From an uncultured bacterium (lineage in GTDB: Bacteria > Lernaellota > Lernaellaia > Lernaellales > Lernaellaceae), in the NCBI GenBank assembly GCA_964534375.1, contig CAZHPN010000059.1, positions 1-31,750 of the forward strand: 31,750 bases of DNA, in the 5' to 3' direction. The translations under genes were made by a program, and so were the position numbers. Positions 698 to 27,939 of this stretch are shown here, in pieces. The notes under the pieces are model-generated. The model was not told where the DNA came from. It saw only the letters and a program-made list of their open reading frames with translations, and did no database searches. Numbering within the stretch: the stretch's first letter is position 1; each line of letters opens with the position of its first letter.

Positions 698-875
698 CCA
701 GACGAGGATTCCGCTGGAAATGTCGATTTTTTTGACAGGATCAACAGAATCAACGGGCTCGCTTCTTTTTGAAATGTTTTCTGAGCCTCTTGCAAAAATC
801 ACTTGCTGCATCTGCGAAAGCGAATTCGAGGGTTAAGCGAGATTAGTTGCTGACCCGACACCGACTGCGAGTCCT

Positions 876-943
876 CCCCTTTGGCCCCTCTCCGCGTCGG
901 GCAGGGGCGGAAAATTTCGGGAACCGAAATTTTCGGGGAGGGG
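876..943. repeat. Intergenic palindromic element
   Basis: Perfect 11-bp stem GAAAATTTCGG-gaa-CCGAAATTTTC (910-934) nested inside CCCCTCTCC...GGGGAGGGG arms; lies between convergent genes. Confidence 0.55.
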
Positions 944-1029
944 TCGGCGCGACGAGTCGCGCATTGGGCCGGTATTCGTGCAGAAGGCACAAGAATCAGA
1001 ATCATCGCCAAAATTTCATGCAGCCTCGG

Positions 1030-1410
1030 TCAGGACGGCAACTGATTCAGGCAGGCGTTGATCGCGTTCCACAACGCGACTTCGTTCGTGTAGTGCGCGC
1101 ATTGGATATTTTCGAGGCAGCCAAAGAAAGAATTGGCGTACGGATTGTTCGACGCGGCGAGTTGCCCGCAGAGGGCCAGCGTGTCGTTGTAAACCGCGGC
1201 GTCGGGAAAGCAGCCGCTCATACCGAAAAATTCGGCGGCGTAGCCGGCGCAGGCGCCGGCGGGCGCGGCATCGTCGTCGGCGGCGGCGTCGTCGTCGCCG
1301 GTGTTGCTCTCGTAATGAATCGTGGTGGTTCCCGCGTGATGACCGCCGCCGCACGCCAGGACGGCGCAAGCGAGAGCGATCGCCAGCGAGGCCGCGGCGG
1401 AATATTTCAC
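1030..1410 (-). CDS. Small Cys-rich lipoprotein
   Basis: GTG start overlaps the upstream TGA (GTGA). Signal peptide ends in lipobox VLA-C, followed by a GDDDAAADDD linker and six more Cys. Confidence 0.7.
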   Translation of the reverse strand: MKYSAAASLAIALACAVLACGGGHHAGTTTIHYESNTGDDDAAADDDAAPAGACAGYAAEFFGMSGCFPDAAVYNDTLALCGQLAASNNPYANSFFGCLENIQCAHYTNEVALWNAINACLNQLPS

Positions 1411-1880
1411 GCGTCCCTCCCCGCGAAGTCTCTGTGGAAGGCCAGCACCAGCACGCTGGCGCCCAGCAGCGAGCCGTCGCGCAGCAGATACCAATAGTTG
1501 ATCGTCGCCGTCCCTTTGGTGCTGAAGCAGCCGCAGTCGATGTTGAGGCCCTTGGCCAACGCCCACGACAGCGCGATCACGAACGAGAGATACATCAGCG
1601 AGGCGAGCAGCGCCGCGGCGTCCGTGACGCGGTCCAGCGGCCGCGGGCTGCGCAGGCCGATGACGAGCAGAACGCCGACGAGCAGTTCGGTCCAGGGCAG
1701 GACCATCGCCCACAGGTTGACCAGCGCCGTCGGCAGGAAATGGTAATTGTCGACGGCGGTCGCGAAGCCGGTCGAGTCGAGGATTTTCGGCGGCGCGGCA
1801 AGCAGAAACATCGCCGCCACCAGCAGCCGCAGCGGCAGCATGACAAACGGGGAGCCGAAAAAGGCGGCGAGCTTCTTCAT
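1407..1880 (-). CDS. MauE/DoxX-family membrane protein
   Basis: MKKLAAFF start overlaps the rhodanese stop (ATGA). Motifs LPWTELLVG, GLNIDCGCF and LLRD. Confidence 0.85.
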   Translation of the reverse strand: MKKLAAFFGSPFVMLPLRLLVAAMFLLAAPPKILDSTGFATAVDNYHFLPTALVNLWAMVLPWTELLVGVLLVIGLRSPRPLDRVTDAAALLASLMYLSFVIALSWALAKGLNIDCGCFSTKGTATINYWYLLRDGSLLGASVLVLAFHRDFAGRDA

Positions 1881-2383
1881 TTCTTGAACTCGTACAAAAT
1901 CACGCCGGCCGCCGGGTTGCCTTCGATGGGGTAGCCCGCCGCCGACCACTCGGGCCAGCCGCCGAAGAAGACGTAGACTTCGCGGTAACCGACGTTGCGC
2001 AGGGCGTCGGCGACCAACTGCGAGCTGTTGCAGCCCTCGCCGTTGCAATAGACGACCACCGGCGACGACGGCGGCACGCCCTGCATCGCCGCTTCCCACT
2101 GCTCGGCGGCGTGTTCGTAGTCGATGTGCCGCGCGCCGCGGATATGTCCCGCCGCGAATTCCTCGTTGTCGCGCGCATCGACGAAGACGACGCCCTGGTC
2201 GTAGAGCGTCTTGGCCCGCGCGAGCGTCAGCAGCGAACTGTCTGCGCCGGGACCCGCCGGCCGGATCAAGGGCAGACTTTTCGCCCGCAGCGCGTTGTGC
2301 GCCAACGCCGCGACGGCGGCCAGCGCAACGAGAATCGCCGCCGTGGCCGCGGTCCGGGCAAATTCGCGAATTCGCTTCGCCAT
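1877..2383 (-). CDS. Rhodanese-like domain protein with N-terminal membrane anchor
   Basis: FVDAR...EFAAGHIRGA, VVYCNGEGCNSS and VFFGGWPEW rhodanese signatures. Confidence 0.88.
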   Translation of the reverse strand: MAKRIREFARTAATAAILVALAAVAALAHNALRAKSLPLIRPAGPGADSSLLTLARAKTLYDQGVVFVDARDNEEFAAGHIRGARHIDYEHAAEQWEAAMQGVPPSSPVVVYCNGEGCNSSQLVADALRNVGYREVYVFFGGWPEWSAAGYPIEGNPAAGVILYEFKK

Positions 2384-2409
2384 CGCCGTCCCGTGAAAAT
2401 TGCAGAGGC

Positions 2410-2437
2410 AGTATAACCCGCCGATTTCCCATGGCAA
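2410..2437 (-). promoter_or_regulatory. Putative sigma70 promoter for rhodanese-MauE-lipoprotein operon
   Basis: TTGCCA-N16-TATACT on the minus strand, 26 nt upstream of the ATG at 2383. Confidence 0.45.
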
Positions 2438-2468
2438 GTTCGGCCGGCGCCGCCGCGGGCGGCAATGC

Positions 2469-2497
2469 TTGACAGTTCGGTTCTGGAAGTTTACACG
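2469..2497 (+). promoter_or_regulatory. Putative sigma70 promoter for NifU-ferredoxin
   Basis: TTGACA-N17-TACACG upstream of the ATG at 2541. Confidence 0.45.
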
Positions 2498-2540
2498 TAT
2501 GGGGCGCCCGGAGGGAAACAAGGGCGCAGAGGATGATTGC

Positions 2541-2765
2541 ATGAAAGAAAAAGTCGAGACCGTCATTTCCAAGATTCGGCCCTATCTGCAACGCGACGGC
2601 GGCGACATTGAGTTGATTGAAGTCGATGCCGAAAAGTTTCTGGTCAAAGTGCGGCTGCAAGGCGCCTGCCACGGCTGCCCCGGCGCGGCCATGACGCTCA
2701 AGTTGGGCGTCGAGCGGACGTTGCGCGAAGAAGTCGACGACAAGATTCAGGTCGTGACCGTCTGA
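2541..2765 (+). CDS. NifU/NfuA C-terminal-type Fe-S carrier protein
   Basis: IRPYLQRDGGDIEL and LQGACHGCPGAAMTLKLGVE (CxxC); AGAGGA RBS. Confidence 0.93.
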   Translation: MKEKVETVISKIRPYLQRDGGDIELIEVDAEKFLVKVRLQGACHGCPGAAMTLKLGVERTLREEVDDKIQVVTV

Positions 2766-2822
2766 TTTTTCGCCCCACCCGAATGGCGAACCCGATTCAC
2801 ACTACCGACGGAGGAAAGTGAG

Positions 2823-2990
2823 ATGACCCATAAGATCACCGACGAATGCATCGCCTGCGGCTCCTGCGCCGCCGAATGCCCCGCCGACGCGATCACCGAA
2901 GGCGAACCCTATGTGATCGATCCGAAAAAGTGCACGGACTGCGGCGCCTGCGCCGACGTCTGCCCGGTCGAGGCCGCCCAGCCGGCCTAA
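2823..2990 (+). CDS. 2[4Fe-4S] clostridial-type ferredoxin, 55 aa (absent from ORF track)
   Basis: Hand translation: [55 protein letters not shown]. Two CxxCxxCxxxCP motifs; GGAGG RBS. Confidence 0.95.
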
Positions 2991-3023
2991 CGCGGCGGGC
3001 AAGCTCGTTCGGAAAACACAGTC

Positions 3024-3064
3024 AACGCGGCGGCGCGTCCGAACGCCCCGCCGCGTTTCGTTTA
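3024..3064 (+). terminator. Intrinsic terminator (possibly bidirectional)
   Basis: AACGCGGCGGCGCGT-ccga-ACGCCCCGCCGCGTT stem followed by TCGTTT, between convergent genes. Confidence 0.65.
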
Positions 3065-3074
3065 ACGGCGCGCG

Positions 3075-3347
3075 TCAGTTGGCCTGGAACGTGCCGCCCG
3101 CGCTGATCCGCCCGTAGTAGGCCACCTGGCCTTTCGCATCCGAGCCGAGGCCGCCGGTCGTCCAATACTGCCACAGATAAACCGTACGGCCGTCGTCGCT
3201 GTGCGTCGAGAACCAGTTCTTGCCTTCGACGACGTCGGCCCGCGCCGGCCGCGGATTGGCCAGCCAACCGGCCACCGTAAAGATCAAGTTGGCGGTGAGC
3301 AGCACGGCCACGATGACTAACAGAGCATGCGTCCGCTTGGTGTGCAT
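3075..3347 (-). CDS. Small exported/membrane-anchored hypothetical protein
   Basis: AGGAGG RBS; MHTKRTHALLVIVAVLL... hydrophobic N-terminus with ARA-D cleavage-like site. Confidence 0.7.
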   Translation of the reverse strand: MHTKRTHALLVIVAVLLTANLIFTVAGWLANPRPARADVVEGKNWFSTHSDDGRTVYLWQYWTTGGLGSDAKGQVAYYGRISAGGTFQAN

Positions 3348-3471
3348 TTCGATCCTCCTGTGGATTGCTGTTGCGGCGTTATCGTCGGCAAGTTTGCGGC
3401 CGTTGTCCAGGGGCGGCCGGCGTGAGAAATAGCCGTGCGTCCCTGCGGCGCGAGACGCCCTCACGACCCCG

Positions 3472-4677
3472 CTAAAATTCGATCCGGCCCTGCGGCTTGT
3501 AGCCGAGTTCGCGGAAGGCGCGGGTGATGTCGAGCAAGGCCGTGTATTTGTGCCGGTCTTTGTCGACGCTGTAGTAATACTCGGTGAGGCCGAGTTTGCG
3601 TTGCACGAAATTGACCATCGGCAGCATCGGCCCGGGCAGGCTGAACACGCGGCGGCCGTTGAGTTCGGCGAACAGTGAAATCGGCGCGGTGTCGCGGCCG
3701 GCGATGTTGTAGATGCCCTGGATGTTTTTTTCGAGGGCGAGCGTGATCGACTGAATCACGTCTTTCATGTGCAGCAGGTTGACCAGCGGGTTGAAGCCCA
3801 GCGTCTTGATCACCGGCTTGGAATCGAAATACGAGTTGAACTGGCCGGAGATGTTGCGGCCGATGATGTTGCTCATGCGCAGAATGACGATCTTGACGCC
3901 GCCGTTGTCCATGAAGCTGCGGCAGATCATGTCGGCGTCGACGCGGTCCTTGATCCACTGGTCGGCGTCGGGATCGAAATTGAGCGGCGCGTTCTCGTCG
4001 AGGTAGATCGGGTTGTGAGGCGTCAACTTGTACACGACGTCCGAACTCTTGAAGACGAACTTGGTGATGCCCGGGGTGTCGAGGCATTGCCGGAGAAGGT
4101 CGCGCGTGCCTTCGACGTTCAACCGGTGAATGTTCTCGCCGCGCAGCGGCTGGTTGTGAAACGCGAGGTGGACGACGGCGTTGATCTTCGCGGCGCGAAA
4201 GGTCGACGAGAGAAACAGGTTTTTCAATTCGCGCGATTTGAGGATGTTGCAGCGGCGGTAGATAAATTTGTCCTTCGGCAGGTCGTTGAAGTAGTACGGC
4301 TTGTCGCGCATCGCGACGCCGACAATCACCCCGACGCGCCGGTTGTTGATCAGGTGCATCGTCAGGTTGCGGCCGATGCTGGTCGTCACCCCCGTGATCA
4401 GCACGTTGAGCTGCCGCTGGCCGCCGCGGGCCGGGCGCGGCGGTTTCTTCTCGCGTTTCGCCGGTCCGTCGCCGGCCGGCGGCCTGGCCTCCGCGGCCGG
4501 GGCCGGTTTCGGTTTCGGTTCCGACCGGTGCGCCGGCCGCGCGGGCGCCCGATTGACGGGTCCGCCGTTGGTGGGCGTGGGGCGCGCGGCGCGAAATTCG
4601 CCGATCAGCGTGTGCGACGGCTTGTCCAGCAGATTCGTCATCAACGGTTCCGGCGTGCTGCCCGGTTCGCGCGACAT
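3472..4677 (-). CDS. NAD-dependent epimerase/dehydratase-fold (extended SDR) protein with atypical active site
   Basis: NVLITGVTTSIG, AVVHLAF, NVEGT, FVFKSS, LHMKDV and GIYNIAG; ~85-aa Pro/Arg-rich N-terminal extension. Confidence 0.8.
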   Translation of the reverse strand: MSREPGSTPEPLMTNLLDKPSHTLIGEFRAARPTPTNGGPVNRAPARPAHRSEPKPKPAPAAEARPPAGDGPAKREKKPPRPARGGQRQLNVLITGVTTSIGRNLTMHLINNRRVGVIVGVAMRDKPYYFNDLPKDKFIYRRCNILKSRELKNLFLSSTFRAAKINAVVHLAFHNQPLRGENIHRLNVEGTRDLLRQCLDTPGITKFVFKSSDVVYKLTPHNPIYLDENAPLNFDPDADQWIKDRVDADMICRSFMDNGGVKIVILRMSNIIGRNISGQFNSYFDSKPVIKTLGFNPLVNLLHMKDVIQSITLALEKNIQGIYNIAGRDTAPISLFAELNGRRVFSLPGPMLPMVNFVQRKLGLTEYYYSVDKDRHKYTALLDITRAFRELGYKPQGRIEF

Positions 4678-4680
4678 CTG

Positions 4681-5568
4681 TCATCCCTCCCCGAGACCGA
4701 ATACGCTCGCGCGTTGTTCGAGCCCTCTGTTGATCATGTCCTGCATCACGAGTTTGACCTTGTCGGCCAGCGCGGTCACCGCTTCCGGATCCTCCAGCGT
4801 GCGCACGTCGTGCTCGCGGTAGAAGTGGATCGGCTCGCCGTAGTAAATGTGATATTTGACCGGCAGCGGCAGCAGGCCCAGCGGCCCGAACCAGGGGAAA
4901 AACGGCGTGACCGGCATATACGGGAAGCCGAACGCGCGGGCCAGCGGCTTGAGGTTGCCGATGATCGGCAGTTGCTCTTCGGCGCCGATGAGCACCGTCG
5001 GCACGATCGGCGCACGGTGCGTGAGCGACAGCTCGATGAAGCCGACGCCGAAACGCATCAGGTTGTACCGTCGCGAAAACGGCTTGCCGAGGCCGCGCGT
5101 CCCTTCCGGCCACACGCCGACCAGTTCGCCGGCGTGCAGCAAATCCTGCACGTTGCGGCGATGGCCGATGACCTGCCCGACGCGGTAAAAGAAAACGTTG
5201 ACGAAGGGCAGGAAGCCGGCGAAGTTGTCGACGATCGTCCGCAACGGACGCGGCTTGACCATGTTCATCGCCACGTCGACCGCGGTCATCGCCGCGTCGA
5301 TCGGCAGCGCGCCCGAGTGATTCGAAACGATCAGCCCCGGGCCCTCGGTCGGGATATTCTCGTGGCCTTCGCTCGCCACCCGGAAATAATATTTATGGAG
5401 ATAGCGCGCCAGGCCGTAGGCGAGGATCGTCGATTCCTTTTCCATGCCGAATTGATCGAAGCCGAAGCCCAAATCGTGCACATCGATGGACTCCATGCGC
5501 TCGAACTCGTCCGGCGGCATGAGCTTGCGCGCCCATTCCAACGCTCTCGCGCGCTGACGCTGGTTCAT
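4681..5568 (-). CDS. Lysophospholipid/glycerol acyltransferase-family protein
   Basis: GFDQFG, LIVSNHSGALPIDA, VWPEGTRG, GFIELSL and APIVP motifs. Confidence 0.88.
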   Translation of the reverse strand: MNQRQRARALEWARKLMPPDEFERMESIDVHDLGFGFDQFGMEKESTILAYGLARYLHKYYFRVASEGHENIPTEGPGLIVSNHSGALPIDAAMTAVDVAMNMVKPRPLRTIVDNFAGFLPFVNVFFYRVGQVIGHRRNVQDLLHAGELVGVWPEGTRGLGKPFSRRYNLMRFGVGFIELSLTHRAPIVPTVLIGAEEQLPIIGNLKPLARAFGFPYMPVTPFFPWFGPLGLLPLPVKYHIYYGEPIHFYREHDVRTLEDPEAVTALADKVKLVMQDMINRGLEQRASVFGLGEG

Positions 5569-5609
5569 CCGTCCCCCGAAGTCATTATGCAGAAATCCTG
5601 TTGGGTTAA

Positions 5610-5638
5610 CTAATAGTCGCGCGGCCCGCGGATGTCAA
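5610..5638 (-). promoter_or_regulatory. Putative sigma70 promoter for acyltransferase-SDR
   Basis: TTGACA-N17-TATTAG on the minus strand. Confidence 0.4.
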
Positions 5639-5677
5639 TGCAAGCGCGCGGCGGGCGCCGGGCTAGGCGGTCCGGGT

Positions 5678-6022
5678 TCACTTCACGAGAGCGATTAGCA
5701 GCACGACAAACCCGATCACGGCGATCGTCCCATGAACGACGATCGACGAGACGGGCAGCGGGGCTTTCCGCAAATAGATCGAGAACAAATAGAACCCGCC
5801 GAGTGCGGCGAGCACGAACAAAATCAGCGCCGCGGCGCCGAGCCCGCCGATCCCTTGCCCCACGGCGACCAGCAGCACCACCAGGCCGAGGCCGGCGAAG
5901 GCGCCGTGGGCCGCCGCTAGCGACAACGGAATTGGTTTATCGCCCAACCGGCGAGAAACCATAGTCGCTCCGAGGACCGCGGCGACCGCGAACAGAATCA
6001 AGGCGACGCCAACGAGAGCCAT
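5678..6022 (-). CDS. Small four-helix membrane protein with two intramembrane HG motifs
   Basis: GGAGG RBS; internally duplicated halves (AAAHGAFA and IVVHGTIA). Confidence 0.75.
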   Translation of the reverse strand: MALVGVALILFAVAAVLGATMVSRRLGDKPIPLSLAAAHGAFAGLGLVVLLVAVGQGIGGLGAAALILFVLAALGGFYLFSIYLRKAPLPVSSIVVHGTIAVIGFVVLLIALVK

Positions 6023-6065
6023 GATCGATTTCCTCCCGCCAATTCCGATGTTTTCCGCTTGCGCG

Positions 6066-6145
6066 GGCCGCCATCCAACGGCGAGCCAAACGTAAGCAGT
6101 GGGTGGAACGAAATCAACCGCCGGCCGTGATGGCGGCCAACCTAC
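6066..6145. repeat. REP-like inverted repeat with GTAG foot
   Basis: GGCCGCCATC (6066-6075) / GATGGCGGCC (6129-6138); CCTAC at 6141-6145 reads GTAGG on the minus strand. Confidence 0.5.
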
Positions 6146-6361
6146 ACGGCAAGCGCCTCGGCTAATCAACTCATCCCCTGAACAATGGCCAATGGCGAAT
6201 GGCGAGTTGCCGGCGCCGCCCGAATTTCCCGTTTTCCATTCAACATTCTACATTCCGGATTGCGCTCTTCCAAAGCTGTGAGATCAAGGCTGCCGGTGGT
6301 TGGCAGGCGGAGGCCTAATTTATCGACGGTTTCAGTCGGACTTCTACGCTGCACACGGGGC

Positions 6362-17477: not shown

Positions 17478-18145
17478 ATGCCGGCGCCGGAACTTGCCGG
17501 GAGCGCCGACGCCCCCGTCGGCGACGAAATAACAAACGCCGACGAGGGCGTCGGCGCTCCCAGCGAGACCCCCAGCAATGACCGCGGCTGGTTTTCTCGC
17601 GGCTATCTCCCGCACTTCGATTCGTCTTTTGTGATACAAGTAGTCACGTATCGGCTGGCCGATTCGCTGCCAAACGAGGTGGCGAGGCGAATGCTCGCGG
17701 ATTATCCCGAGGGCTGGAAATCCCCGGCGTATCGAAAGCGCATCGAGGACTACCTCGACGCCGGGCACGGCGCGTGCTGGCTGCGGCGGCCGGAGATTGC
17801 GGCGCTTGTCCACGATTCATGGCGACATTTCGACGCGGCTCGTTACCGCCTTCACGCCTGGGTCATATCATGCCCAACCACGTGCACCTCGTGGCGCAAA
17901 TGATGGAACCGAACGACCTTGCCGCGGTCGTCAACGGTTGGAAGTCGTTCAGCGCGAGAAGAATCAACGAACTCCTGCGTCGCCGCGGCGCGCTTTGGCA
18001 GCGTGAATATTGGGACCGCTTCATTCGCGACGAACAACATTATCAACGCGCCGTGGCATACGTGCACGAAAATCCCGTGAAGGCCGGTTTGGTCTCGCGA
18101 GCGGAAGATTGGCCTTGGAGCAGCGCCGGCGCGTGGAGCGCGTGA
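17478..18145 (+). pseudogene. REP-associated tyrosine (HUH/Y1) transposase, frameshifted
   Basis: Frame 1: RGYLPHFD...VTYRLADSLP...HAWV. Frame 2: MPNHVHL (HUH)...WQREYWDRFIRD...YVHENPVKAGLV...WPWSS. Removing the extra AT at 17865-17866 restores WVIMPNHVH. Confidence 0.85.
17499..17561. repeat. REP doublet hairpin (25-bp arms, 1 mismatch)
   Basis: GGGAGCGCCGACGCCCCCGTCGGCG / CGCCGACGAGGGCGTCGGCGCTCCC. Related GAGACCGGCGC(G/T)CCC units at 17363-17377 and 18181-18195 flank the transposase. Confidence 0.8.
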
Positions 18146-18615
18146 GCGGGCAACGCTCTTGGCGAAGAATGGGCCGCCTTGAGACCGGCGCTCCCGGCAA
18201 GTTCCGTGCGAATGGGAGAAAATCACGAACTTTGCATAACATTTGACTCAGCCATGTAGGGGGCGCGGGGCCTGCGGTTCCGGCGGTCGGGCTCCGCACC
18301 GGGCCATCAGGCGAGTGGTCTGCGAGATGTTGGCGTTTCGCACGCGAGGTGCGGACGGTCCTGAAGAGAGAAGGTGATTCGAACGAAGAAATTCGTCAAT
18401 GCGATGCGGCTACGGTCAGCCGCGTCCGCGCCCCCGCTGCCACGGACGGCGGCAGCGGCCCGCGAGGCAGTGCATGCCGACGCGGAACGCCGCCCGGCGG
18501 CGGCCAAGCTGCGGGCCGCGGAGGAGGGGCCGGAGCGCTTCGTGGTCTTGAACAGGCAGGGTTTGCCTATCATCCGGCAATCATCCGGGCTGAATCAACT
18601 CCGGATTGTCCGGAT

Positions 18616-18737
18616 GAATTCCGGTGACGCAATACGTGCTTGCCGCGATCGGAGGTTTTTGGCGGCGCCGTTCGGTCTGCGGGAAACTCGACCGGGCCGG
18701 AAAGGGTCGGCGATTACGTATTGCGTCCCCCGAATTC
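18616..18737. repeat. Inverted-repeat element (MITE/REP-like)
   Basis: Perfect core GACGCAATACGT (18626-18637) / ACGTATTGCGTC (18716-18727), bounded by GAATTC at both ends. Confidence 0.65.
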
Positions 18738-18780
18738 TCCCCGAACCCCGCCCCGCGCGCGTAATCTGTCGATTGCCCGG

Positions 18781-18840
18781 CCCCCGAACCCCGGACCCCG
18801 GAACCCTGCACGCTGCTCGCTGTCCGCTGCTCGCTGTTCA
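18781..18840. repeat. 7-bp tandem repeats
   Basis: CCCCGGA-type units followed by CGCTGCT CGCTGTC CGCTGCT CGCTGTT. Confidence 0.6.
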
Positions 18841-18925
18841 ACGGCTCCGAGCCCCGGCGACCGGAAACATCTTGCGCTTTTCACAAGCCACATGATAATA
18901 ACGCGCAATTGAAAAAAGGCAGGCG

Positions 18926-19780
18926 ATGTATTTCTGCTACGTCGATGAATCCGGCAGCTTGGACTGCGGGACGACAGAACCACGAACGGACTGCATTCGC
19001 AAGAATCCGATATTTGTTCTCAGCGGCTTATGCGTTTACGCAGAGAACTGGCGCAAGTTTTCGGGCATTATCGATCAACGAAAGGACGATCTCCGTGACA
19101 AACTTTTCCGAACAAAAGGGCTGTCGCTCAAACTGACCGACTGCGAATTGAAATCGTCGTGGATTCGCATTCCTACGCTCCGGCAACAGCGGCCCTTTCT
19201 GGCCGGTCTTTCCGAAATCGAGCTTTCGGGGCTGGTCAACCTTTGTTACCAGCAAATCGAACGGGCGCGCATGACCATTGTCGCCATAGTCGTCGACAAG
19301 CGCCAACTGTCTGCGTACTTCGATTCGGACAAGCTTCATCGGAAAGCGTGGGAACTGCTTCTCGAACGAGTGGAGCACTTCATGCGGGAACGTCACGACC
19401 GCCACAGCGTGATCTTCATCCGCGATGACATCAGCGTCCAGGTCAATCGGAGTTTAGCGGAAAAACACGCGTATCTGCTGAAGACGCAAGCGACCTCCGG
19501 CTTGAAGTTGAGTCACGTAATCGAAATGCCGCTATTCACGCGCAGCGAACTCTCCAACGGCATTCAGCTCGCCGATTTGGTCGCCTACAACTTTTACCAT
19601 GCGTTCGATCGCAAGAAGGCCGACTACCCGTACCTGCGGAAGATCTTGTCGTTTGTGTATAACTCCGCGAACACACCCCCCGACAAACTGGACGGGCTGA
19701 AGCTGTTCCCGCCAGACGGCGACCTGACCGGCATTGCCGCAGAAATAGAAAGGGCCTCGGTTCAACCGCCGACGCCCTAG
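18926..19780 (+). CDS. DUF3800-family protein (predicted RNase H-like fold)
   Basis: N-terminal YVDESG, ELK, IQLADLVAY and C-terminal GLKLFP motifs; intact 284-aa frame, AT-richer than flanks. Confidence 0.85.
   Translation: MYFCYVDESGSLDCGTTEPRTDCIRKNPIFVLSGLCVYAENWRKFSGIIDQRKDDLRDKLFRTKGLSLKLTDCELKSSWIRIPTLRQQRPFLAGLSEIELSGLVNLCYQQIERARMTIVAIVVDKRQLSAYFDSDKLHRKAWELLLERVEHFMRERHDRHSVIFIRDDISVQVNRSLAEKHAYLLKTQATSGLKLSHVIEMPLFTRSELSNGIQLADLVAYNFYHAFDRKKADYPYLRKILSFVYNSANTPPDKLDGLKLFPPDGDLTGIAAEIERASVQPPTP
19741..19778 (-). terminator. Intrinsic terminator of the antisense RNA
   Basis: AGGGCGUCGG-8 nt-CCGAGGCCCU stem (1 mismatch) followed by UUCUAUUUCU. Confidence 0.6.
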
Positions 19781-19837
19781 GAAAATCCTTGAAGTCCGGC
19801 TGGGCAAACCATATCGAGCCGACTGGCGGCACCGGAC
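19742..19837 (-). ncRNA. Predicted ~95-nt structured RNA convergent with and overlapping the DUF3800 3' end
   Basis: Bounded by a near-consensus promoter and an intrinsic terminator; 5' GUCCGG pairs with CCGGAC; no plausible ORF within it. Confidence 0.6.
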
Positions 19838-19843
19838 GATGAA

Positions 19844-19872
19844 AGTGTATTGTTGCCGCGCATTCCTGTCAA
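19844..19872 (-). promoter_or_regulatory. Near-consensus sigma70 promoter driving the predicted antisense RNA
   Basis: TTGACA (19872-19867)-N17-TACACT (19849-19844). Confidence 0.7.
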
Positions 19873-19906
19873 CTCCGAAAGCCGACGGCCCCGCCGAATA
19901 GGTGTG

Positions 19907-20013
19907 CGTAGTCGAGTTTGGTCGCTCCTTGACACGTCACTTCGACCCCCTCGACTACGTTCGCGGGCAGGCTTCGCGACCGGGCGGCGTAGGGGCGCCG
20001 CGTGCCGCGCCCC
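19907..20013. repeat. Cluster of REP-like palindromes
   Basis: CGTAGTCGAG (19907-19916) / CTCGACTACG (19950-19959); GTA-GGGGCGC...GCGCCCC (19989-20013). Confidence 0.6.
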
Positions 20014-20135
20014 CGCAGCCCGCGGCGCGCTGTGGAGAAATCTATCTCGTGGGCTCCCTTCCGCAATCAAGACCGGCACCTGGCAACCGTTGGACCAGCG
20101 CGATACCAGAGGAGTTGGCTAATGCTATCGTAGTG

Positions 20136-21317
20136 CTACCTAACAACAGACTTGATGACTATTCCCCAGCCGTTTGGCAACCAGTGGCTGTGAACAAGGA
20201 GCAAAAGCAAAGGCGAAACAACTATTCCCAGAAATCTCTTTAGACTAACAAGATCTAACGGAATGAGCCGCATTTTATTCGTGGATTTCAGGTACTCCAG
20301 GAACGCCACCGCAGCGTCATCCGGCGTCCCTTCAAGGACCTTGCCGTCCGCGTATGCATTCGCGTTGGCCTCAATTCGCCGAATGATTTTCCGTGAGACA
20401 ACATTCGACCACGCTTTGAACTCACGCATGGCCCGATACGAGTGCGGCGTAAAAAACAAAACGGGCAGAAAGAATGCTGTTGGCGAGAGAACCGCGTACG
20501 AGACAATGAAGAAAAGGTGATCGGGTCTAACGAGCGGAAGCCCGTACAACAGCGTATTGTTCATAATCGCGCCGACAATCCACACGCCCACGCTCATTAT
20601 AAAAATTCCGAGCGTCACTTGCGGGAAATTGAGGTTCGAAAGGCCGCCGCAATTGTCAGGATGCATCATATCGACATTTATTTCATGAGTAGACAATCGG
20701 TGCATCATTACCATGTATAGGATGCCGCGGATGGCAAATGTGCCAATCGTGATTCCGTATGTTGCTGTCACCGTCATGGCAAAAAGAAATCCGAAGGTCG
20801 GTCTATGAAAAGAACCAATCTGAACCCAGCCGTGCCACGTCCGGGCATCGCCGGTCAGATCGTACCCAACGAAAACCAACGTCGAAATAAAGATCACGGC
20901 AATCAGGAAGCGATCGAAGATTTTGTTCTCAAGGAGACAGTTGATTTTTTTGATTTCCAGAGAAACAACAGCCCGATCCCCAATCACGTCTCCCTCGAAT
21001 AGCCAGGAAGATAGTCGATCCAGTTCTTTTTGAAATAGAGAGGCCCAAATAAGCGCGAGAGGAAAACAAAGAAAACAAGTTATGTGGATCGCGAGATCAG
21101 TCAGCATGCTCACTTTCAAGTCATTGGGATCCCGGAAAAGCGACCCCTCGATCATCGCGGCAATAAAACAGGCCGCCCACAGCAGAAATGCAAACAACGA
21201 TATTCGGCCAATGTTGGGCGACTCATCGGGCCGGTAGATCCCGGCCTTTTCAAGGACAGGATACAAGATTGAGCTTTTGAGAAAGTTAATTCTTTCTCGA
21301 TTACTTTCATTCTCCAT
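20136..21317 (-). CDS. Hypothetical multi-pass membrane protein, AT-richer
   Basis: ~393-aa frame with about 7 hydrophobic segments and an HPDNCGGL loop; GGAG RBS before MENES. Alternative start at 21383. Confidence 0.75.
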   Translation of the reverse strand: MENESNRERINFLKSSILYPVLEKAGIYRPDESPNIGRISLFAFLLWAACFIAAMIEGSLFRDPNDLKVSMLTDLAIHITCFLCFPLALIWASLFQKELDRLSSWLFEGDVIGDRAVVSLEIKKINCLLENKIFDRFLIAVIFISTLVFVGYDLTGDARTWHGWVQIGSFHRPTFGFLFAMTVTATYGITIGTFAIRGILYMVMMHRLSTHEINVDMMHPDNCGGLSNLNFPQVTLGIFIMSVGVWIVGAIMNNTLLYGLPLVRPDHLFFIVSYAVLSPTAFFLPVLFFTPHSYRAMREFKAWSNVVSRKIIRRIEANANAYADGKVLEGTPDDAAVAFLEYLKSTNKMRLIPLDLVSLKRFLGIVVSPLLLLLVHSHWLPNGWGIVIKSVVR

Positions 21318-21468
21318 TTCGCGCTCCCGCCCGTCGCCGCCGAGTGACTCAGTGTATGAGGATGGCAAAAATCGACTCACCATGATTCCTGGTCTCTGCT
21401 CCTGTGGCTACTCTGGATTCGTCACACCAAGGACAAATCCAGCCCGCGTTACTGATGATGTTGTCCAG

Positions 21469-22179
21469 TCACGAGATTGTCTTTATTGCCCAATCGACGC
21501 CCCCGATCAAATCGGACACGTCGTCGCTTGTCGGTTCTTTGTCGCCCTTGTGTGCGCAACGGTTGCGGAGATCGCCGAAAAACTCAATGCGGCGCGCAGT
21601 CGGCAAGTCGATTACGTCGGCTTTTCGCAGTGCGTCTTTAATAGGGTTGAGCGTCTTGTCCTTTGTTTGCGGCCCGAGCCCGTGCGTCTCGGCCACCTTC
21701 CTTAGATGGCCTTCCAAAACGACGCCGGCAATCGTGCCGGCGGCCCGGAGATGTCCGTTTCTTTGAAGATGACGTGCCGCCTCCAGTTCGTTGTCAAATA
21801 AATCCGCTTGCAATACGCCGGTTATACCCGTCAAAATGCTTTCGATTCGAGAACGTGCGGAAGACAGAATCCCAATCTGATTCTTGATTAACATGCTTGC
21901 TCGGGCGTCCGCAACGACACCCTGACGCAATCCTCATACTACATCACTGATTCGAAAGTCATTGGCGTCAATCCAATCGCCTTGCCTTTCGTTCTCGTAT
22001 AATGCCTCAAAGTCTTCTACACGGTCCGGTAAGAGATTTCTCACGACTGCCAATGCGTCAGAATGCCATAGTTGGTACATTTGGGGCAAGTCGTTGCTTC
22101 GTACGGCCTTTCGGACGTCGTCGCCCGACTTGATTAGCCTATCTAGCTCTGTCTTTATTTGCTCGCTTCGCGAATTCAT
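21469..22179 (-). pseudogene. HEPN-domain protein interrupted by one in-frame TGA (pseudogene or recoded)
   Basis: ORFs 21934-22179 and 21469-21930 share a frame (…ISDVV*GLRQ…). C-terminus has RAAGTIAGVVLEGHL and the Rx4H motif RNRCAH. Confidence 0.75.
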
Positions 22180-22183
22180 CTTT

Positions 22184-25100
22184 TTACCCCACGTCGTTCG
22201 TTTGGCGACCCACCGGCATCCTCGGCGGTTTCGTCTTCCACATCAATTCAATTTCCTCCGCCGTCAGCCCATACGCCGCATTCACAAGATCGGTCAGCCG
22301 CCGCTCCAACGTCAGCGCCTCAACGCGGCGGGCTTGGGTCGGCGCGGCGTAGTTGGCGTATTCCTGGCGGAGGCGGGCGAGGCCGGCGGGCGACAGGGGT
22401 TTGCCCTTCGGCAGCCGCGCCTTCACCTCCGCCGCGAACTCGTCGGCCGTGAGCGACGCGAAATCGTCCAGCTTTTGCCCCGGCGTTGCCACGCCGAAGT
22501 CCATGCGCAACCAATCGAGAAGCTCGTGGCGTGCCGCCTGGTCGGTCCGCGTGATCTCGACGAGGCGCGAGACGGCTGGCTCCGCCTCGGCGCGTATAGC
22601 ATCGGTCGGACGGGCGACCGGGAACTTCTCCATCAAGTCAGCTTTGGGACTCAGGGCCTCGTCTTTCATATGCGGCAAGTATCGCCAGTTGTGCCACCAC
22701 AGCAACGGAGAATTCAGAACCGCGAGCAGGTACGGGTCGCTCGCGGGTAGGAAAAAACCTTGTTGTTGGCGTAGTAGCCATCAGCGTCCAGGGCGTAGCA
22801 TGGGTGAAACTGGATTTCCTGGTAAATAACCTTCGGGCGCTCAAATCCTTCGTAGTTGGCGCACGAGCGCAGTTCCCACCAGTGGCGTCCCTTGTCCAAG
22901 CGTTTACGGAGGGCGGCCTCCATCGGCTTTAGCCAGCGGTAGACCGACGGATAGGTGGACGCGAAAGTTGATTCGGGGGCATCGCTCAATCCCCAAGGCC
23001 ACGATGCGTCACCGCTCGATTTGATGAGGATAAGCCAAAGCCCGGCCCACTCAGGCGTCCACCGCTCGATGTCCTGCCCCCGCAGGTACGGTTTGATGAT
23101 CTCGGCGCATTTCGGGTCCTCGCGAACGAGTCGGTCGCGAGTTGGTGTGTCAATCAAGAACGCGTCGTTGAGGCCGGTCTTGATCCCGTAAATCGGGGCC
23201 GCCCCGATGAATTCTTTGAGCGGCACGCCAGCCCGTCGAATCTTTTCCATGAGCGCGTCCACCGCGGGCGGTTCGAGGCTCCACGGCGCATTCGTGAATC
23301 GCCGCCACGGCGCCGAGTAGCACTCGCGGCTAACAAACTGCGTCAGGTTCAGGCCGGGCAATTTCTCGCCGGGGACGGGGCAGATTTTGACAGCGGAATC
23401 CGGCGCCGGTTGGGGTCGGTCGCCCGGCTGCCCCATGTCGTTGAGGTTCGGCGTCGCGGCGGGTTTGCGCACGACAACGATGCAGGGGAAGACGTCGGCC
23501 TCTTCGAATATCGGCGCGTGGCCGAAGTCGAGGATTTCCTCGAAAACATCCGACGCCGAGAAAAATCCGCGCAGTTCTTCGCCGTATCCGGCGCGCAGCC
23601 ATTTGTTCGTGACGATGTACGACAAACGCCCGCCGGCGCGCAGCAGGCGCAGGCCGATTTCATAAAAATACACATACAGATCGGCCGAGCCGTTGAACGA
23701 TGAATAACGGGTTTTCAGATGAGGCTTGAGCGCGGAGATCAAGCCGCTTTGCACGTAGGGCGGGTTGCCGAGCGCCACGTCGAAGCCGCCGTCGGCGAAA
23801 ACCTCGGGGAACGCCGCCTTCCAATCGAACGCGCGGGTGTCGTAAGCCGGATCGGCGACAACGCTGTTGCCGCAACGGATGTTGTGATCCAGGTCGGTCA
23901 GCGCCTTGCCGCGTTCCGCCGTTTTGAGCCACAGGGACAAACGGGTGATTTCGACGGACTCCGGATTCAGGTCGACGCCGTAGAGGTTGTTGTTCAGGAT
24001 CGTTTTGGTCAGGTCGAAGAGCGACGCCTGGCCGCCGCGCAAGGCCGCGAGTTCCGCGTTGACCAATTCGTACTCGTGCAGCAGGTAGTCGAACGCCGAG
24101 AGCAGAAACGCGCCGGAGCCGCACGCGGGGTCGAGGATGCGCGTGCCGGTCAACGCATCGCGGTACGCTTCCCAGGCGCCGATCAGCGCCACCGTGCGTT
24201 TGCCCTCGCCGCGCTGCCGGTCCGGAGCGAATTTCTGGAACGCCGCCGCCTTCTTCTCGGCGAGCGTCGTGCCCAGGGCGCGTTCCACGATATAGCGGGT
24301 AACGAACGACGGGGTGTAGAACACGCCCTCCCGTTTGCGTTTGGAGACGGCCCGCGGCGCGGTCGCCGGGGCCTCTGCGGCCTGGGCGCGCATTTCCTCC
24401 AGGTCGGAGATCGATTGCTCGAAGATGTGGCCGAGCACCAGCACGGACACATCCTCGGCGTAGTCGTAGTCGGCGAGCGCGCGGAAGCCGCGGACCAGGT
24501 CGTCCGGCAGATCCAGGTCTTCCAGCACGGGATCGGGCCGGAAGAGGCCGCCGTTGTACGCGGGGATCTGCATGTCGCCGTTGCCGCGGTCGATCCAGGC
24601 GAAGACCGCTTTGAAGTTTTCCCACCGCGGCCGCGAATGGTACGGGTCCGTGTGATCGAAGGCGTCGCGGATGGTGTTCGCCGGCAGCAGGCCGCGATCT
24701 TCCGCGAAGGCGATGAAGAGCACGCGGTCGAGAATCTTCTGCGTCTTTTCCAGGAGCAGCGACGGATCGCGGTCGGGGCGGGCGCGCGTGACGTGCGCGA
24801 AAATCTGCGAACGCAGTTGCTTGTACTGCCGGTACAGCTTGTCGGTGACCTCGACCTGGGCGCGGGCGGAATCGTCGAGCAGCTCGGCGACGACGCTGAC
24901 GCCGTCCGGCTTCGCCGGCAGGAAATTGGCCCGGCAAAGCAGGTAGAAGAAGCGCCGGAAGACGGCTTCGTCGGCCATTTCCTCGAGGAGAAAGCGCTCG
25001 TACGCCTGCTGCGAATGATCCAAATGGTAGAGGCGCGTTTCGCGGTAGTTCGACACGAGCACCCAGCGGCAGCCGGGCGTTTCGATCAAGTACCGCCAGC

Positions 25101-25515
25101 CTTGGTCCACCGGCGTGTAACCGCGCGCCATTTCGCGGTCGAGGTCGGCATGGCCCCCTTTGAGTTCGATCGGCGCGTAGATTTTCCCCGGCGGCTCGGC
25201 GGTGAAGAAGCCGAGCGCCGCGTCGGCCTGCCCGCCGCCCGCGCTCATGTGCTTTTCGGCGTACAACTCCCAGCATTGCCCGCCCGTGTCGGCGGCGGAG
25301 CAATAACCAAGCACCTTGCGGAAGATGTCGCCCAGGAAATCGCCGTGCAGACTGACCTCGGTCATGCGATCCAACACGCCGGCGCGCTGCATCTCGATCC
25401 AGCGGCGCACGACGGCCTGGCGCTCCGGCAGGTCGCTCGGAAAACCGAACGACGCGACCCGCCGGGCCAGGAGGCGCGGATTGAACAGCGGTTGCGGCGG
25501 ACGGCTGACCGGCAC
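22184..25515 (-). pseudogene. Fused restriction endonuclease-methyltransferase (Type IIG/IIL-like), 1-bp frameshift near C-terminus
   Basis: AD...IELK nuclease motif, GVFYTP, ILDPACGSGAFL (motif I), NPPY (motif IV), terminal YGLTAEEI. One extra T in the T6 run at 22752-22757 joins both ORFs as NNKVFFLPASDPYLLAVLNSPLLWW. Confidence 0.88.
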
Positions 25516-25709
25516 GATGGGACCTCAACAAATAGGCAATGCGGCGAGCGTACCGAACTGGCGGGGCGTTGCCAAGCGGCCGGCTAATTTTAAACACAGA
25601 GACCACGGAGAAAGCGCATAGAGAACACAGAGGCGGTCGTCTCTGCGCTCTCTGTGTCTTCCCTCGGCGGGCGCCCCGAGCGCAGTCGAAGGGGCCTCTG
25701 TGTTTAGCC
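25509..25709 (-). repeat. Direct repeat copy A (promoter + RBS + GTG + long imperfect palindrome)
   Basis: Manual alignment to 26867-27089: 116/131 identical over the first ungapped block. Contains TTGGCA-N17-TACGCT (25575-25547). Confidence 0.9.
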
Positions 25710-26873
25710 GCCTGACGGTCGCAGATCCGACCGGCTCCCCGCCGGCCCCATGCCCAGGATCACCCGCAGGCCGGGCGTCCGGCCGGCGAGATGGCCGATG
25801 CCGAAGGCCAGGAGCACAGCCGCCGCCGCGACCAGCGCGAAGAGGACTCCCACGGGCAGATCGAGTTTCTCGGCGCCGGCCTGGAGCCCGACGACCACCG
25901 GGAGGTGGAGCATGTACGCCGCGTAGCTGTCCCGCGCCAGCCGGTCCAGCAGGCGGCGCGGCCCGCCAACGAGTTCGCGGAACAGCACGATCAGCCCGAC
26001 CGAGAGGCCCACGGCGAGCAGCGCCTCCCACGCGCTGCGCGCCAGGGAAGGCAGGCTGGGCCCGCCGCCGGCCATCAGCGCGTCCCAACGTCCGAGCGCG
26101 GAGACGACGTAGGCGCCCGCCGCGGCGAGCAGACCCACGGCGAGCCAGGTCAGCCCGACGCTCGTCGGCATCCGGCGGAGCCAATCGCCCCGAGCGGCCA
26201 GGGCCCCCACGGCGAAAAAGCTCACGTACTGCGGCATGTGCGCCGGCTCGGCGGCGAGGACCCAGAAGAGCGGCGCCCACTGGTCCACGGGGTAGCGGAG
26301 CCGCACTACGAACGTGACCAGGGCGAGCGCGGCCACGAACCCGAGGATCAAGGCGTGCCCGGGGACCGGCAGGGGCCGCGCCGGACCCGGCCGGGGCGCG
26401 ACCCGGCGCCAGGCCGCGTAGGCCGCCGAGTAGAGGAGCAGGTGGCCGAGAAACCAGAGGTGCCAGTAGACGGGCAGCCAGCCGCTCTGATAGAGCCCGC
26501 GGACGAACTCGCCGAGGGGCGGGCGCGACTGGGAGATGCAGACCAGGGGAAGCTGCACGCCGAGCGCGAAGACCGCCAACGGCAGGCCGATCCGCGCCAG
26601 GCGGTCCTTCAGGAAACGCCTCGCCCCCTTGCGCTCGTAAGCGCCGGGAACGAAGCAGCCGGCGAGGAGGAACAAGAGACCCAGGCCGAAGGAGGCGTTC
26701 ACGGTGCAGAACGCCCGCAAGCCCTCGATCACCGTCCGGTGGTGGATGGCCCAATAGGAGCCGGCGGGGCCGTAGGCCTGGGCGGCGTGGTGGACGATCA
26801 CGAAAACGATCACCGCGACGCGGAGTGCATCGGCGAACGCCAGCCGCTCTGCTTTCACGGCCATGGCCGGCAC
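25704..26873 (-). CDS. Acyltransferase-3 (OpgC/MdoC-like) membrane acyltransferase
   Basis: DALR...VIVHH, LLFLLAG, RLARIGLP, HLWFL and SYAAYMLH motifs. Alternative ATG at 26864. Confidence 0.88.
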   Translation of the reverse strand: MPAMAVKAERLAFADALRVAVIVFVIVHHAAQAYGPAGSYWAIHHRTVIEGLRAFCTVNASFGLGLLFLLAGCFVPGAYERKGARRFLKDRLARIGLPLAVFALGVQLPLVCISQSRPPLGEFVRGLYQSGWLPVYWHLWFLGHLLLYSAAYAAWRRVAPRPGPARPLPVPGHALILGFVAALALVTFVVRLRYPVDQWAPLFWVLAAEPAHMPQYVSFFAVGALAARGDWLRRMPTSVGLTWLAVGLLAAAGAYVVSALGRWDALMAGGGPSLPSLARSAWEALLAVGLSVGLIVLFRELVGGPRRLLDRLARDSYAAYMLHLPVVVGLQAGAEKLDLPVGVLFALVAAAAVLLAFGIGHLAGRTPGLRVILGMGPAGSRSDLRPSGG

Positions 26874-27089
26874 GATGGAACCTCAACGAATTGATAATGC
26901 GGCGAGCGTACCGAACTGGCGGGACGTTGCCAAGCCGCCGGATAACTTTAAACACCGAGAGCACGGAGCAAGTGCATAGAGAGCACAGGGGCGGTCGCAG
27001 CGCGCCGCGCGCGATCGCGCACGAAGCGTTGCGACCGCGCTCATCTCTGCGCGCTCTGTGTCTTCCCTCTGCGGCCTCTGTGTTCAGCC
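26867..27089 (-). repeat. Direct repeat copy B
   Basis: Offset 1358 bp from copy A; same TTGGCA-N17-TACGCT (26933-26905), GAGG RBS and GTGCCGG start. Confidence 0.9.
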
Positions 27090-27233
27090 TTCCAACGCCG
27101 CGAATGCACGCGAAGAGGATGCGGTGCGATTCGGGCGTGAAACCGCGAATACACACGAATGCACGCGAATAAATCGATATTGTTCACCGCCGAGGACGGA
27201 GGGGTCGCCGAGGAACCGACCACGGGCCGCCGG

Positions 27234-27282
27234 CAACTGTTCACTGTTCGCTGTTCACTGTTCACTGTTCACTGGCCGCTGC
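27234..27282. repeat. 7-bp tandem repeat (TCACTGT) x7
   Basis: caactgt tcactgt tcgctgt tcactgt tcactgt tcactgg ccgctgc. Confidence 0.8.
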
Positions 27283-27360
27283 TTGACAGCCGGCCGCGGG
27301 CCGCGTAGTCAATACGCCGACGACGCTTTCGCGGCGTGATTGGTTGGAGGGTGGAAACAG

Positions 27361-27939
27361 TTGAAACCACGATGTCTGATTTTGTTGGGCGCGCTGGTCG
27401 CGGCGTCCGCCGCGCTGCTTTTCGCCTGCGGTTCCACCAGCAGCCACGAGAGTTCGACGGCCGATGACGACGTCGCGGCCGAAACCGTATGGACCGATAC
27501 GACCTCGGGGCTGGCGTGGCAAAGCGGCGCAGCGGTCGGGACCATCCCGTATTTGGGAGAGAACGCTCAGAGTTACTGCGCCGGCTTGACCTGGGCCGGC
27601 GAATCCGGCTGGCGGCTGCCGACGATCACCGAGCTGCGCAGCCTGGTCCGCGGCTGCCCCGCCACGGATGCCGGCGATTCGTGCGGCGTGACGAACAGTT
27701 GCGCGCAATCCAATTGTTGGAGCAACACGTGCTTCGGTTGCACCAATTACCTTGGCGGTCCCGGCCCGGGCGGCGCCTACTGGCCGGCGGAACTCACGGG
27801 CTTTGTCGGCGCATCCGGGTATTGGTCGTCCACCGCGGTCACGGATTCCCCGAATGCCCTGTGGGTCGTCAATTTTTTCTACGGCGGCGTGGGCAATCTC
27901 TCGGACATCATCAACGGCTGCGTGCGCTGCGTGCGTTGA
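27361..27939 (+). CDS. DUF1566 (Lcl C-terminal-like) lipoprotein
   Basis: Lipobox LFA-C; DTTSGLAWQ, GWRLPTITELRSL, YWSST and terminal VRCVR. TTG start after GGAGG. Confidence 0.85.
   Translation: MKPRCLILLGALVAASAALLFACGSTSSHESSTADDDVAAETVWTDTTSGLAWQSGAAVGTIPYLGENAQSYCAGLTWAGESGWRLPTITELRSLVRGCPATDAGDSCGVTNSCAQSNCWSNTCFGCTNYLGGPGPGGAYWPAELTGFVGASGYWSSTAVTDSPNALWVVNFFYGGVGNLSDIINGCVRCVR

Follow-up and report, generated by a model that had tools for sequence, protein, structure and literature searches.

A foreign acyltransferase gene between two copies of the hairpin, leader and first codons of a type IIG restriction gene in an uncultured Lernaellota bacterium

Contig CAZHPN010000059.1 from an uncultured bacterium of the family Lernaellaceae (phylum Lernaellota; GenBank assembly GCA_964534375.1), of which positions 1 to 31,750 were analyzed and are called the window in the following, carries on its minus strand a type IIG restriction-modification gene with the Pfam domains Eco57I (2.3e-44), N6_Mtase and MmeI_Mtase (PADLOC REase_MTase_IIG, 3.1e-149) and, upstream of it on the same strand, a gene for an acyltransferase-3. 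The open reading frame (ORF) of the acyltransferase is bracketed by two units of approximately 88% identity, A (25506–25709) and B (26864–27089), with a start-to-start spacing of 1358 nt. Each unit consists of a hairpin element, a leader and the first codons of the gene that follows, which is the restriction gene after unit A and the acyltransferase gene after unit B. The features are compiled in Table 1.

Table 1. Features of the acyltransferase locus and, in the last row, the remnant of a transposase gene elsewhere in the window
Feature	Position	Strand	Evidence
Type IIG restriction-modification gene, 933 aa, GTG start	22714–25515	-	Pfam, PADLOC
Leader A, putative promoter	25516–25584	-	Alignment to B; TTGGCA, TACGCT, GAGG
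Hairpin element A, CACAGAG-type palindrome resembling miniature inverted-repeat transposable elements (MITEs) or REPINs	25585–25707	.	nhmmer 67.5 bits, alignment, fold
Acyltransferase-3 (AT3, OafA/MdoC-like), 389 aa from the borrowed GTG	25704–26873	-	PF01757, 8.4e-29
Fusion junction, perfect 12-nt palindrome CGGCCATGGCCG	26858–26869	.	Covers both the end of the leader homology and the native ATG; spotted post hoc
Leader B	26874–26942	-	84 of 95 positions identical to A
Hairpin element B, a complete copy of the family element whose central palindrome is GC-rich	26943–27091	.	nhmmer 117.8 bits, fold
Frameshifted RAYT (REP-associated tyrosine transposase; HUH gene of the initial annotation), outside the unit	17582–18142	+	NF047646, 96.5 bits (cut-off 80)

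A repeat search resolved the similarity of the two units into blocks of 134 nt (88%; 25506–25639 versus 26864–26997), 38 nt (89%; 25633–25670 versus 27037–27074) and 17 nt (94%; 25693–25709 versus 27073–27089), which bears out the initial annotation, a reading of the letters of the window without database searches, in which two copies of about 89% identity over 131 bp had been described. Also its reading of the expression signals stood up: on the minus strand both copies contain TTGGCA-N17-TACGCT, followed by GAGG and GTGCCGG (copy A: TTGGCA 25575–25570, TACGCT 25552–25547, GAGG 25526–25523, GTG 25515; copy B: TTGGCA 26933–26928, TACGCT 26910–26905, GAGG 26884–26881, GTG 26873), and according to the ORFs and to Pfam the GTG starts the restriction-modification gene in A and the acyltransferase-3 gene in B. 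That the similarity ends early in the coding sequence is correct, the extent being 9–10 nt (GTGCCGGYCA) rather than the 7 nt first given. At the other end the TAA stop of the acyltransferase gene (25706–25704) lies, as had been seen, inside the outer end of hairpin A, where copy B has TGA (27086–27084). The ORF was said to fill the space between the repeats exactly; it does so almost, its native ATG (26864–26862) being three codons past the GTG and its stop lying at the hairpin terminus, but a stop in the hairpin is a habit of the whole hairpin family (see below). The long imperfect palindrome noticed in the repeat folds with −58.2 kcal/mol (z −3.2) in hairpin A, which has a deleted center and a 24-nt insertion in its outer arm, and with −74.5 kcal/mol (z −3.7) in hairpin B. 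The leader RNAs are unstructured (z +1.9 for A and 0.0 for B).

By BLAST and with an iterated nhmmer profile, both run on the genome itself (6.30 Mb in 381 contigs), the repeat was found to be a composite of a hairpin element that is spread over the whole genome and a leader that is present in three copies. Units A and B have a common hairpin-leader junction and share characters, among them CATAGAG in place of the consensus CACAGAG, that none of the 23 other aligned full-length copies of the hairpin has, from which it follows that hairpin, leader and the first 9–10 coding bases were duplicated in one piece. The leader alignment (88.4% identity) contains no exact match longer than 28 nt; by this measure the event is old, and A and B would recombine inefficiently, which agrees with the stability of the arrangement across two samples described below.

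The 69-nt leader gave three BLAST matches in the genome, namely A, B and positions 26309–26380 of contig C3, and the three copies are about equally diverged from one another (83–88%). The claim that unrelated genes stand behind the same leader is thus true also for a third gene. The copy on C3 lacks a hairpin, its homology beginning at the inner hairpin terminus, and at its other end it runs on for 38 codons, of which 29 align to the N-terminus of the restriction enzyme with 65.5% identity. The stop of this remnant overlaps (ATGA) with the start of a gene for a GDSL/SGNH hydrolase (PF13472, 4.9e-14). Since the C3 copy continues into codons of the restriction gene, the leader is, in this lineage, that gene's own. 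Copies B and C3 are then, judged from their sequences, fragments of the restriction gene, consisting of the leader plus 3 or 38 codons, that were placed before other genes. The hydrolase encoded in this stretch (C3:26309–27450, from the leader copy on) is membrane anchored, and an Rce1-like/CPBP gene is located just upstream of the leader copy. Homologues of the hydrolase in relatives are longer by about 250 aa at the N-terminus, yet just 26–36% identical; those of 575–582 aa have an extra N-terminal region of about 340 aa (again 26–36% identity), and the C3 gene is possibly truncated at its 5′ end. An apparent similarity between the outer flank of hairpin B and the sequence upstream of the C3 leader was discarded, its score of 13 comparing with a shuffle mean of 12.7 and being equaled or exceeded in 225 of 500 shuffles.

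Outside this genome the leader was not encountered. It is absent from 60 related genomes except for a weak match within a coding region in one of them (G003), and neither leader-like nor hairpin-like sequence is found upstream of the relatives of the restriction gene in G007 (locus L076), Spirulina, Vacuolonema and another cyanobacterium. No match to a degenerate 31-nt pattern of the leader was obtained in a search of collections of species-representative genomes and viral contigs, which demanded 27 exact bases and misses diverged copies. The leaders belong to no Rfam family; three Rfam matches were rejected, being far below the gathering scores and to eukaryotic families.

The acyltransferase gene has a guanine-plus-cytosine (GC) content of 73.0%, whereas the restriction gene has 64.1% and the genome 64.2%, so that the first impression of a GC-richer gene was right. 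At E ≤ 1e-10 a homologue is present in one of 17 genomes of the class or phylum, which is the window's own. Among 8000 scored database candidates 166 homologues were found at this threshold, the closest of which are three JGI metagenome proteins (82–84%; two of them, P0002 and P0003, have 83–84%, and P0003 is encoded on a contig of 27.8 kb), followed by others at 50–61%; the more distant, named ones are mostly from Actinobacteria. In an alignment of 12 sequences the two closest homologues begin with MAVKAER and MAAKAER, respectively, that is, with the internal ATG, and only a short C-terminal tail differs. Because the homologues start at the internal ATG, the GTG-CCG-GCC that precedes it in the window derives from the leader. 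The sole homologous locus that could be retrieved (L043; 82% identity in amino acids and 87% in nucleotides) matches the window only from 26860 to 25726 and has neither leader nor hairpin on either side. The ratio of nonsynonymous to synonymous substitution rates versus this locus (dN/dS = 0.38; 384 codons) indicates that the captured gene is under constraint. The acyltransferase gene (ACYLTRANSFERASE) is, going by these comparisons, a foreign and complete ORF, with its 5′ junction 0–9 nt ahead of the native ATG, in frame, and its 3′ junction within about 20 nt of the stop. A GAGG is located 7 nt upstream of the borrowed GTG and there is no Shine-Dalgarno sequence before the native ATG; most likely, the acyltransferase initiates at the borrowed GTG, which would add three residues before the native methionine. 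The palindrome CGGCCATGGCCG at the fusion point owes part of its sequence to a single position at which leader B differs from leaders A and C3 (T to C); it may be due to chance or be a trace of the mechanism.

The hairpin that forms the outer part of the units belongs to a family whose 25 longest copies, when aligned, have the ends AATTTTAAACACAGAG...CTCTGTGTTTAAAATT, arms made of reiterated CACAGAG units and a variable center. Three nhmmer rounds yielded 32, 120 and 153 matches (both strands counted), corresponding to 79 mostly single loci, which are spread over 58 contigs. Searches of 16 further genomes of the phylum gave no match of the family type, the sole match (G009) being to 29 nt of the variable center. 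At 26 of the 79 loci a gene stop lies between −6 and +8 nt relative to the edge of the element, as compared with 2.3 ± 1.4 expected for random genome positions and 5.3 ± 2.2 (maximum 12 in 200 trials) for random intergenic positions, determined with a crude gene set (4948 ORFs of ≥100 aa with GC contents of ≥0.72 at the third and <0.60 at the second codon position, GC3 and GC2). Since abutting on stops is a habit of the family as a whole, the stop of the acyltransferase gene within hairpin A is not special.

On contig C88 copies of the hairpin separate ordinary genes (MFS, histidine phosphatase, DUF2293, thiolase), and C147 has three closely related copies in alternation with short ORFs of no known family. 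On C32 (38283–40771; L075) the genes for DarT-DarG (PF14487, 2.4e-59; Macro, 1e-24) are located between two specifically related hairpins with variable centers that share 92% identity over 62 nt; of these two hairpins the upstream one is split by another MITE-like element. In an all-against-all comparison of the flanks of the 79 loci a unique flank was common only to A and B and to a pair on C122; the rest of the shared flanks were other repeat families. The C122 pair, whose members comprise the hairpin with a 90-nt flank (190 nt at 89% identity) and lie 3357 nt apart, was considered as a second case of the A/B kind and rejected, the genes being tandem FGE-sulfatase paralogues: the locus (C122:509–5456; L056) is a lower-GC island encoding FGE-sulfatases of 483 and 811 aa, each followed by the 90-nt flank and the hairpin, with an RHS-repeat ORF in between. 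Two further elements were seen in the genome. One, an internally palindromic element of about 225 nt found at C97:16899–17121 and on at least 12 other contigs, overlaps with its end matches of the CACAGAG profile and, with copies that are 94–100% identical, is taken to be recently active; the other (about 190–235 nt, e.g., C86:13001–13234) is present in at least 14 copies of 83–92% identity. The intergenic region outside hairpin B is mostly repeat debris. Just beyond the hairpin, at 27101–27171, there are three direct copies of a 14-nt motif (CGAATGCACGCGAA-like), and for 27141–27171 the genome contains about 50 further matches, one of which is located some 50 nt off another hairpin locus (C26). 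Between the divergent genes a heptamer tract, (CTGTTCA)n, follows at 27236–27274, with at least three perfect units at 10 loci of the genome and hundreds of BLAST matches; very many contigs carry it, which is why summed contig depths of 742–6313 were obtained for this tract in four wetland runs.

The structure was compared with Logan contigs of four sequencing runs. Those of run X1, probably the source sample, span 24700–26093 and 26074–27271, and those of run X2, which is from a different sample and study, span 25041–25802 and 26854–27700. In both runs the contigs bridge the restriction gene, leader A, hairpin A and the 3′ end of the acyltransferase gene as well as leader B, hairpin B and the sequence upstream, without a single difference. 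As contigs of a second sample bridge both junctions, the arrangement is not misassembled, a possibility that the initial annotation had named as one that would undo its reading. An artefact by which two loci were joined via the repeat would be conceivable for a contig of a metagenome-assembled genome in a repeat-rich region, but in view of the independent bridging contigs and of copies that, being merely 88% identical, do not collapse in assembly, its probability is practically negligible. The predicted empty site or excised 1358-bp circle was not found either: contigs of the four runs contained no qualifying joint of either kind, which is weak evidence in that contigs drop rare variants. In run X1 a contig of depth 3.7 connects 25657 with 27067, with one extra letter in between; it was not counted as an empty site because it was outside the table of joints and 4 nt out of register (25657 being the counterpart of 27061 in the A/B alignment), and it probably represents a further member of the hairpin family. 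A joint in run X4 (26398 to 27606) was set aside, one side having just 21 nt, and the coverage gaps in runs X3 and X4 were uninformative.

We propose that the arrangement resulted from a one-off local rearrangement in which the promoter was duplicated or captured, which we consider probable, and not from a dedicated cassette system. A horizontally acquired AT3 ORF would have been left between two units of 200–225 bp, each comprising the hairpin, the leader and the first three codons of the restriction gene. With the unit duplicated before both genes, each gene would read from its own copy of the same signals; hairpin A would probably end or stabilize the acyltransferase transcript, and leader A would then restart transcription for the restriction gene. 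Two orders of events are conceivable. The ORF could have been inserted at +10 of the restriction gene with a target duplication of about 220 bp; or the acyltransferase gene was already located upstream, with a hairpin at its stop, and the segment with hairpin, leader and start was copied before it. The second order fits better with the stop-hugging habit of the family, but as both lead to the same product and there is no empty site, they are inseparable.

The leader is a putative promoter. The motifs pointed out in the initial annotation are present in both copies, and a scan with the sigma-70 consensus, which yielded no sites, did not confirm that they function as such; TACGCT agrees with TATAAT in 3 of 6 positions (T1, A2 and T6 kept). 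Terminator-like sites were found twice, 1.7 being expected. The negative promoter scan weighs against the rearrangement proposed here, and so do several other findings. Three leader copies before three different genes exceed a single accident, and at both ends the ORF is delimited with an exactness that is unusual for random illegitimate events. One edge of the duplicated unit falls on the outer terminus of the mobile-type hairpin (within ≤7 nt) and the homology on C3 begins at the inner one, coincidences that hint at a participation of the hairpin ends. The comparison was made with contigs, in which rare excised forms would have been missed, and an empty site, which would show the direction of the event and its one-off nature directly, was found in no relative (the genus is without another genome).

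The hint from the hairpin ends leads to an explanation that we consider unlikely, in which the hairpin itself was the vehicle ("promoter transduction"): a mobile CACAGAG hairpin would once have missed its inner end and carried the leader and the first codons along to a position before the acyltransferase gene. This would be in keeping with a family that is dispersed and lineage-specific, with recent activity as seen in the 94–100% identical copies of related hairpin families and with local hopping, which is suggested by neighboring copies on C147 and C32 that resemble each other more than they resemble other family members. It would also be in keeping with an outer unit edge that is a hairpin terminus, with hairpin A at the acyltransferase stop, as usual for the family, with the beginning of the C3 homology at the inner terminus and with the precision of both ORF junctions. 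What speaks against it is that the C3 leader copy has no hairpin, that among the pairs on the same contig and all 79 loci the sole other case of a hairpin with a unique flank that is shared between loci is the C122 pair, a tandem paralogue duplication, and that no transposase could be tied to the family. The HUH transposase gene that the initial annotation offered as the candidate enzyme is not suited for this role: it is a frameshifted RAYT whose match covers only positions 54–146 of the NF047646 profile and whose frame breaks just ahead of the HUH motif, the paralogues on C140 and C380 being intact. Its repeats are of another family, the GCCGACG...CGTCGGC palindrome, with a copy upstream at 17490–17565 and a 21-nt match downstream at 18186–18206; the RAYT on C380 has tandem arrays of this palindrome on both sides, and none of the 7 Y1_Tnp places in the genome adjoins a CACAGAG locus. 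Contig C380 (1570 nt) resembles a copy of the 17490–18142 region of the window, with 95% identity in the repeat and 85% in the amino acids of the neighboring PMT_2-like N-terminus, and would be either a strain variant or a paralogous locus. If transduction by the hairpin were nevertheless true, a module of promoter, ribosome-binding site and start codon would have been copied from a defense gene to a newly acquired surface-modification gene, a bacterial counterpart to eukaryotic transposons that transduce promoters or exons, and the lineage would have a general route for switching on foreign promoterless ORFs.

Quite improbable appears to us a decay of restriction-gene paralogues, by which a unit of hairpin, leader and gene was duplicated in tandem and copied to C3, whereupon the upstream copy was replaced by, or deleted to, three codons fused to the incoming acyltransferase gene and the C3 copy was deleted to 38 codons. 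On C3 a leader with a 5′ coding fragment has indeed persisted as a remnant, the genome does have tandem gene duplications in which a hairpin is included (C122), and the about equal divergence of the three leaders would be consistent with such a history; but two precise events would be required, copy B contains no trace of the restriction gene past codon 3, and neither the restriction gene nor the acyltransferase gene has a second copy in the genome. The explanation favored in the initial annotation, an integron-like or tandem arrangement of cassettes with a reusable unit, was not supported by the analysis, and we regard it as very improbable. It would have an attC-like hairpin at which units of ORF and hairpin, with or without leader, leave as circles to be captured downstream of a resident promoter. 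Cassettes do have such a layout, an ORF with an imperfect palindrome after it, AAC...GTT is present at the hairpin ends, the hairpins on C147 alternate with short ORFs and the pair on C32 brackets DarT-DarG. The terminal heptamers of the hairpin differ at 2 of 7 positions from the attC core consensus, which speaks against it. That no integrase is visible, as already stated from the window, holds for the genome (94% complete), in which the integron integrase model TIGR02249 gave 12 partial matches, all below the cut-off (best 78.4 bits versus 265); all 14 control genomes give similar sub-threshold matches. Two of the pieces (77 and 50 bits) belong to a Xer-like tyrosine recombinase at C251:129–1132, 127 nt from a weak hairpin match (22.8 bits). 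The copy numbers argue in the same direction: the leader is limited to three copies in the genome, and the hairpin is generic, its 79 loci on 58 contigs being mostly single and those on C88 lying between housekeeping genes. Moreover, the leader would not belong to the cassette, L043 has neither leader nor hairpin, and no qualifying circle or empty-site joint was found in the contigs of the four runs.

The surroundings of the locus contributed little to the question. An orthologue of the restriction gene in G007 (L076; 65–70% amino acid identity) is located in a different gene context, and cyanobacterial relatives are 49–53% identical. Among 11 neighbor genes PADLOC recognized no defense gene except the restriction gene. 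Synteny of the flanks in relatives was uninformative, the PMT_2-like gene being present in one other genome and the gene for a 519-aa protein having many paralogues. From the RAYT remnant to the restriction gene (about 17800–22700) there are ORFs of lower GC3 (0.54–0.69), for just one of which a family could be assigned (DUF3800; 18926–19780); this region is probably a horizontally acquired island.

The rearrangement proposed here provides an unusually clean natural case of a horizontally acquired promoterless ORF gaining expression signals, in which a putative promoter, a ribosome-binding site and a start codon were borrowed from a resident gene, which was not itself disabled. No new recombination system emerges from it. 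The same leader before the genes for a restriction enzyme, a surface-glycan acyltransferase and a GDSL hydrolase would represent promoter reuse in a barely studied uncultured phylum, and the lineage-specific hairpins, which lie tight against stop codons, are useful for the annotation of these genomes.

In integrons, gene cassettes composed of an ORF and attC are captured behind the promoter Pc by IntI. Our locus shares with them a promoterless foreign ORF that is followed by an imperfect palindrome and a resident promoter, the latter putative here; unlike in integrons there is no IntI and no array beside an integrase, the palindromes are scattered over the genome, and the promoter is duplicated rather than shared.

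REP/REPIN elements and their RAYTs, as portrayed in the part of the literature used here (Bertels and Rainey, 2011, PMC3116915, and others), are lineage-specific, dispersed intergenic hairpin palindromes of about 100–150 nt, often at the 3′ ends of genes. The CACAGAG family likewise consists of dispersed palindromic doublets that form hairpins, but its arms are made of reiterated CACAGAG units and no cognate RAYT flanked by the family was found.

Insertions with long target duplication were described by Furuta, Abe and Kobayashi (NAR 2010, PMC2853133), in whose cases, as far as the portion of the paper considered here goes, direct repeats that greatly exceed the target duplications of transposons (threshold >30 bp) occur at restriction-modification loci, the insert, which is the restriction-modification system, contains neither integrase nor transposase, and the empty site in a sister genome defines the target. 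The repeats of approximately 200–225 bp and an insert that is a single AT3 ORF without mobility genes are reminiscent of these cases. Here, in contrast, the insert is the acyltransferase gene, the restriction-modification gene is located outside the repeats, and the repeats are 12% diverged.

Comparable, too, are the putative mobile promoters (promoter reuse) of Matus-Garcia, Nijveen and van Passel (NAR 2012), on which PMC3575422 is a commentary. In the passages of the commentary that bear on the present case they are upstream sequences (−150 to −50) of at least 80% identity over at least 50 nt before non-homologous genes of one genome; more than 4000 families, mostly pairs, have been described, their mechanism being unknown, and REPINs and Correia elements are named as promoter-bearing repeats. 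The two units, with 88% identity over 134 nt from −1 to about −124 of both genes, agree with this description, as do the unrelated genes downstream (Eco57I/N6_Mtase versus Acyl_transf_3) and the third copy before the GDSL hydrolase gene. Beyond it, the duplication also comprises the ribosome-binding site, the start codon and three codons, which resulted in an in-frame fusion, it includes a whole hairpin element, and its two adjacent copies exactly bracket a foreign ORF.

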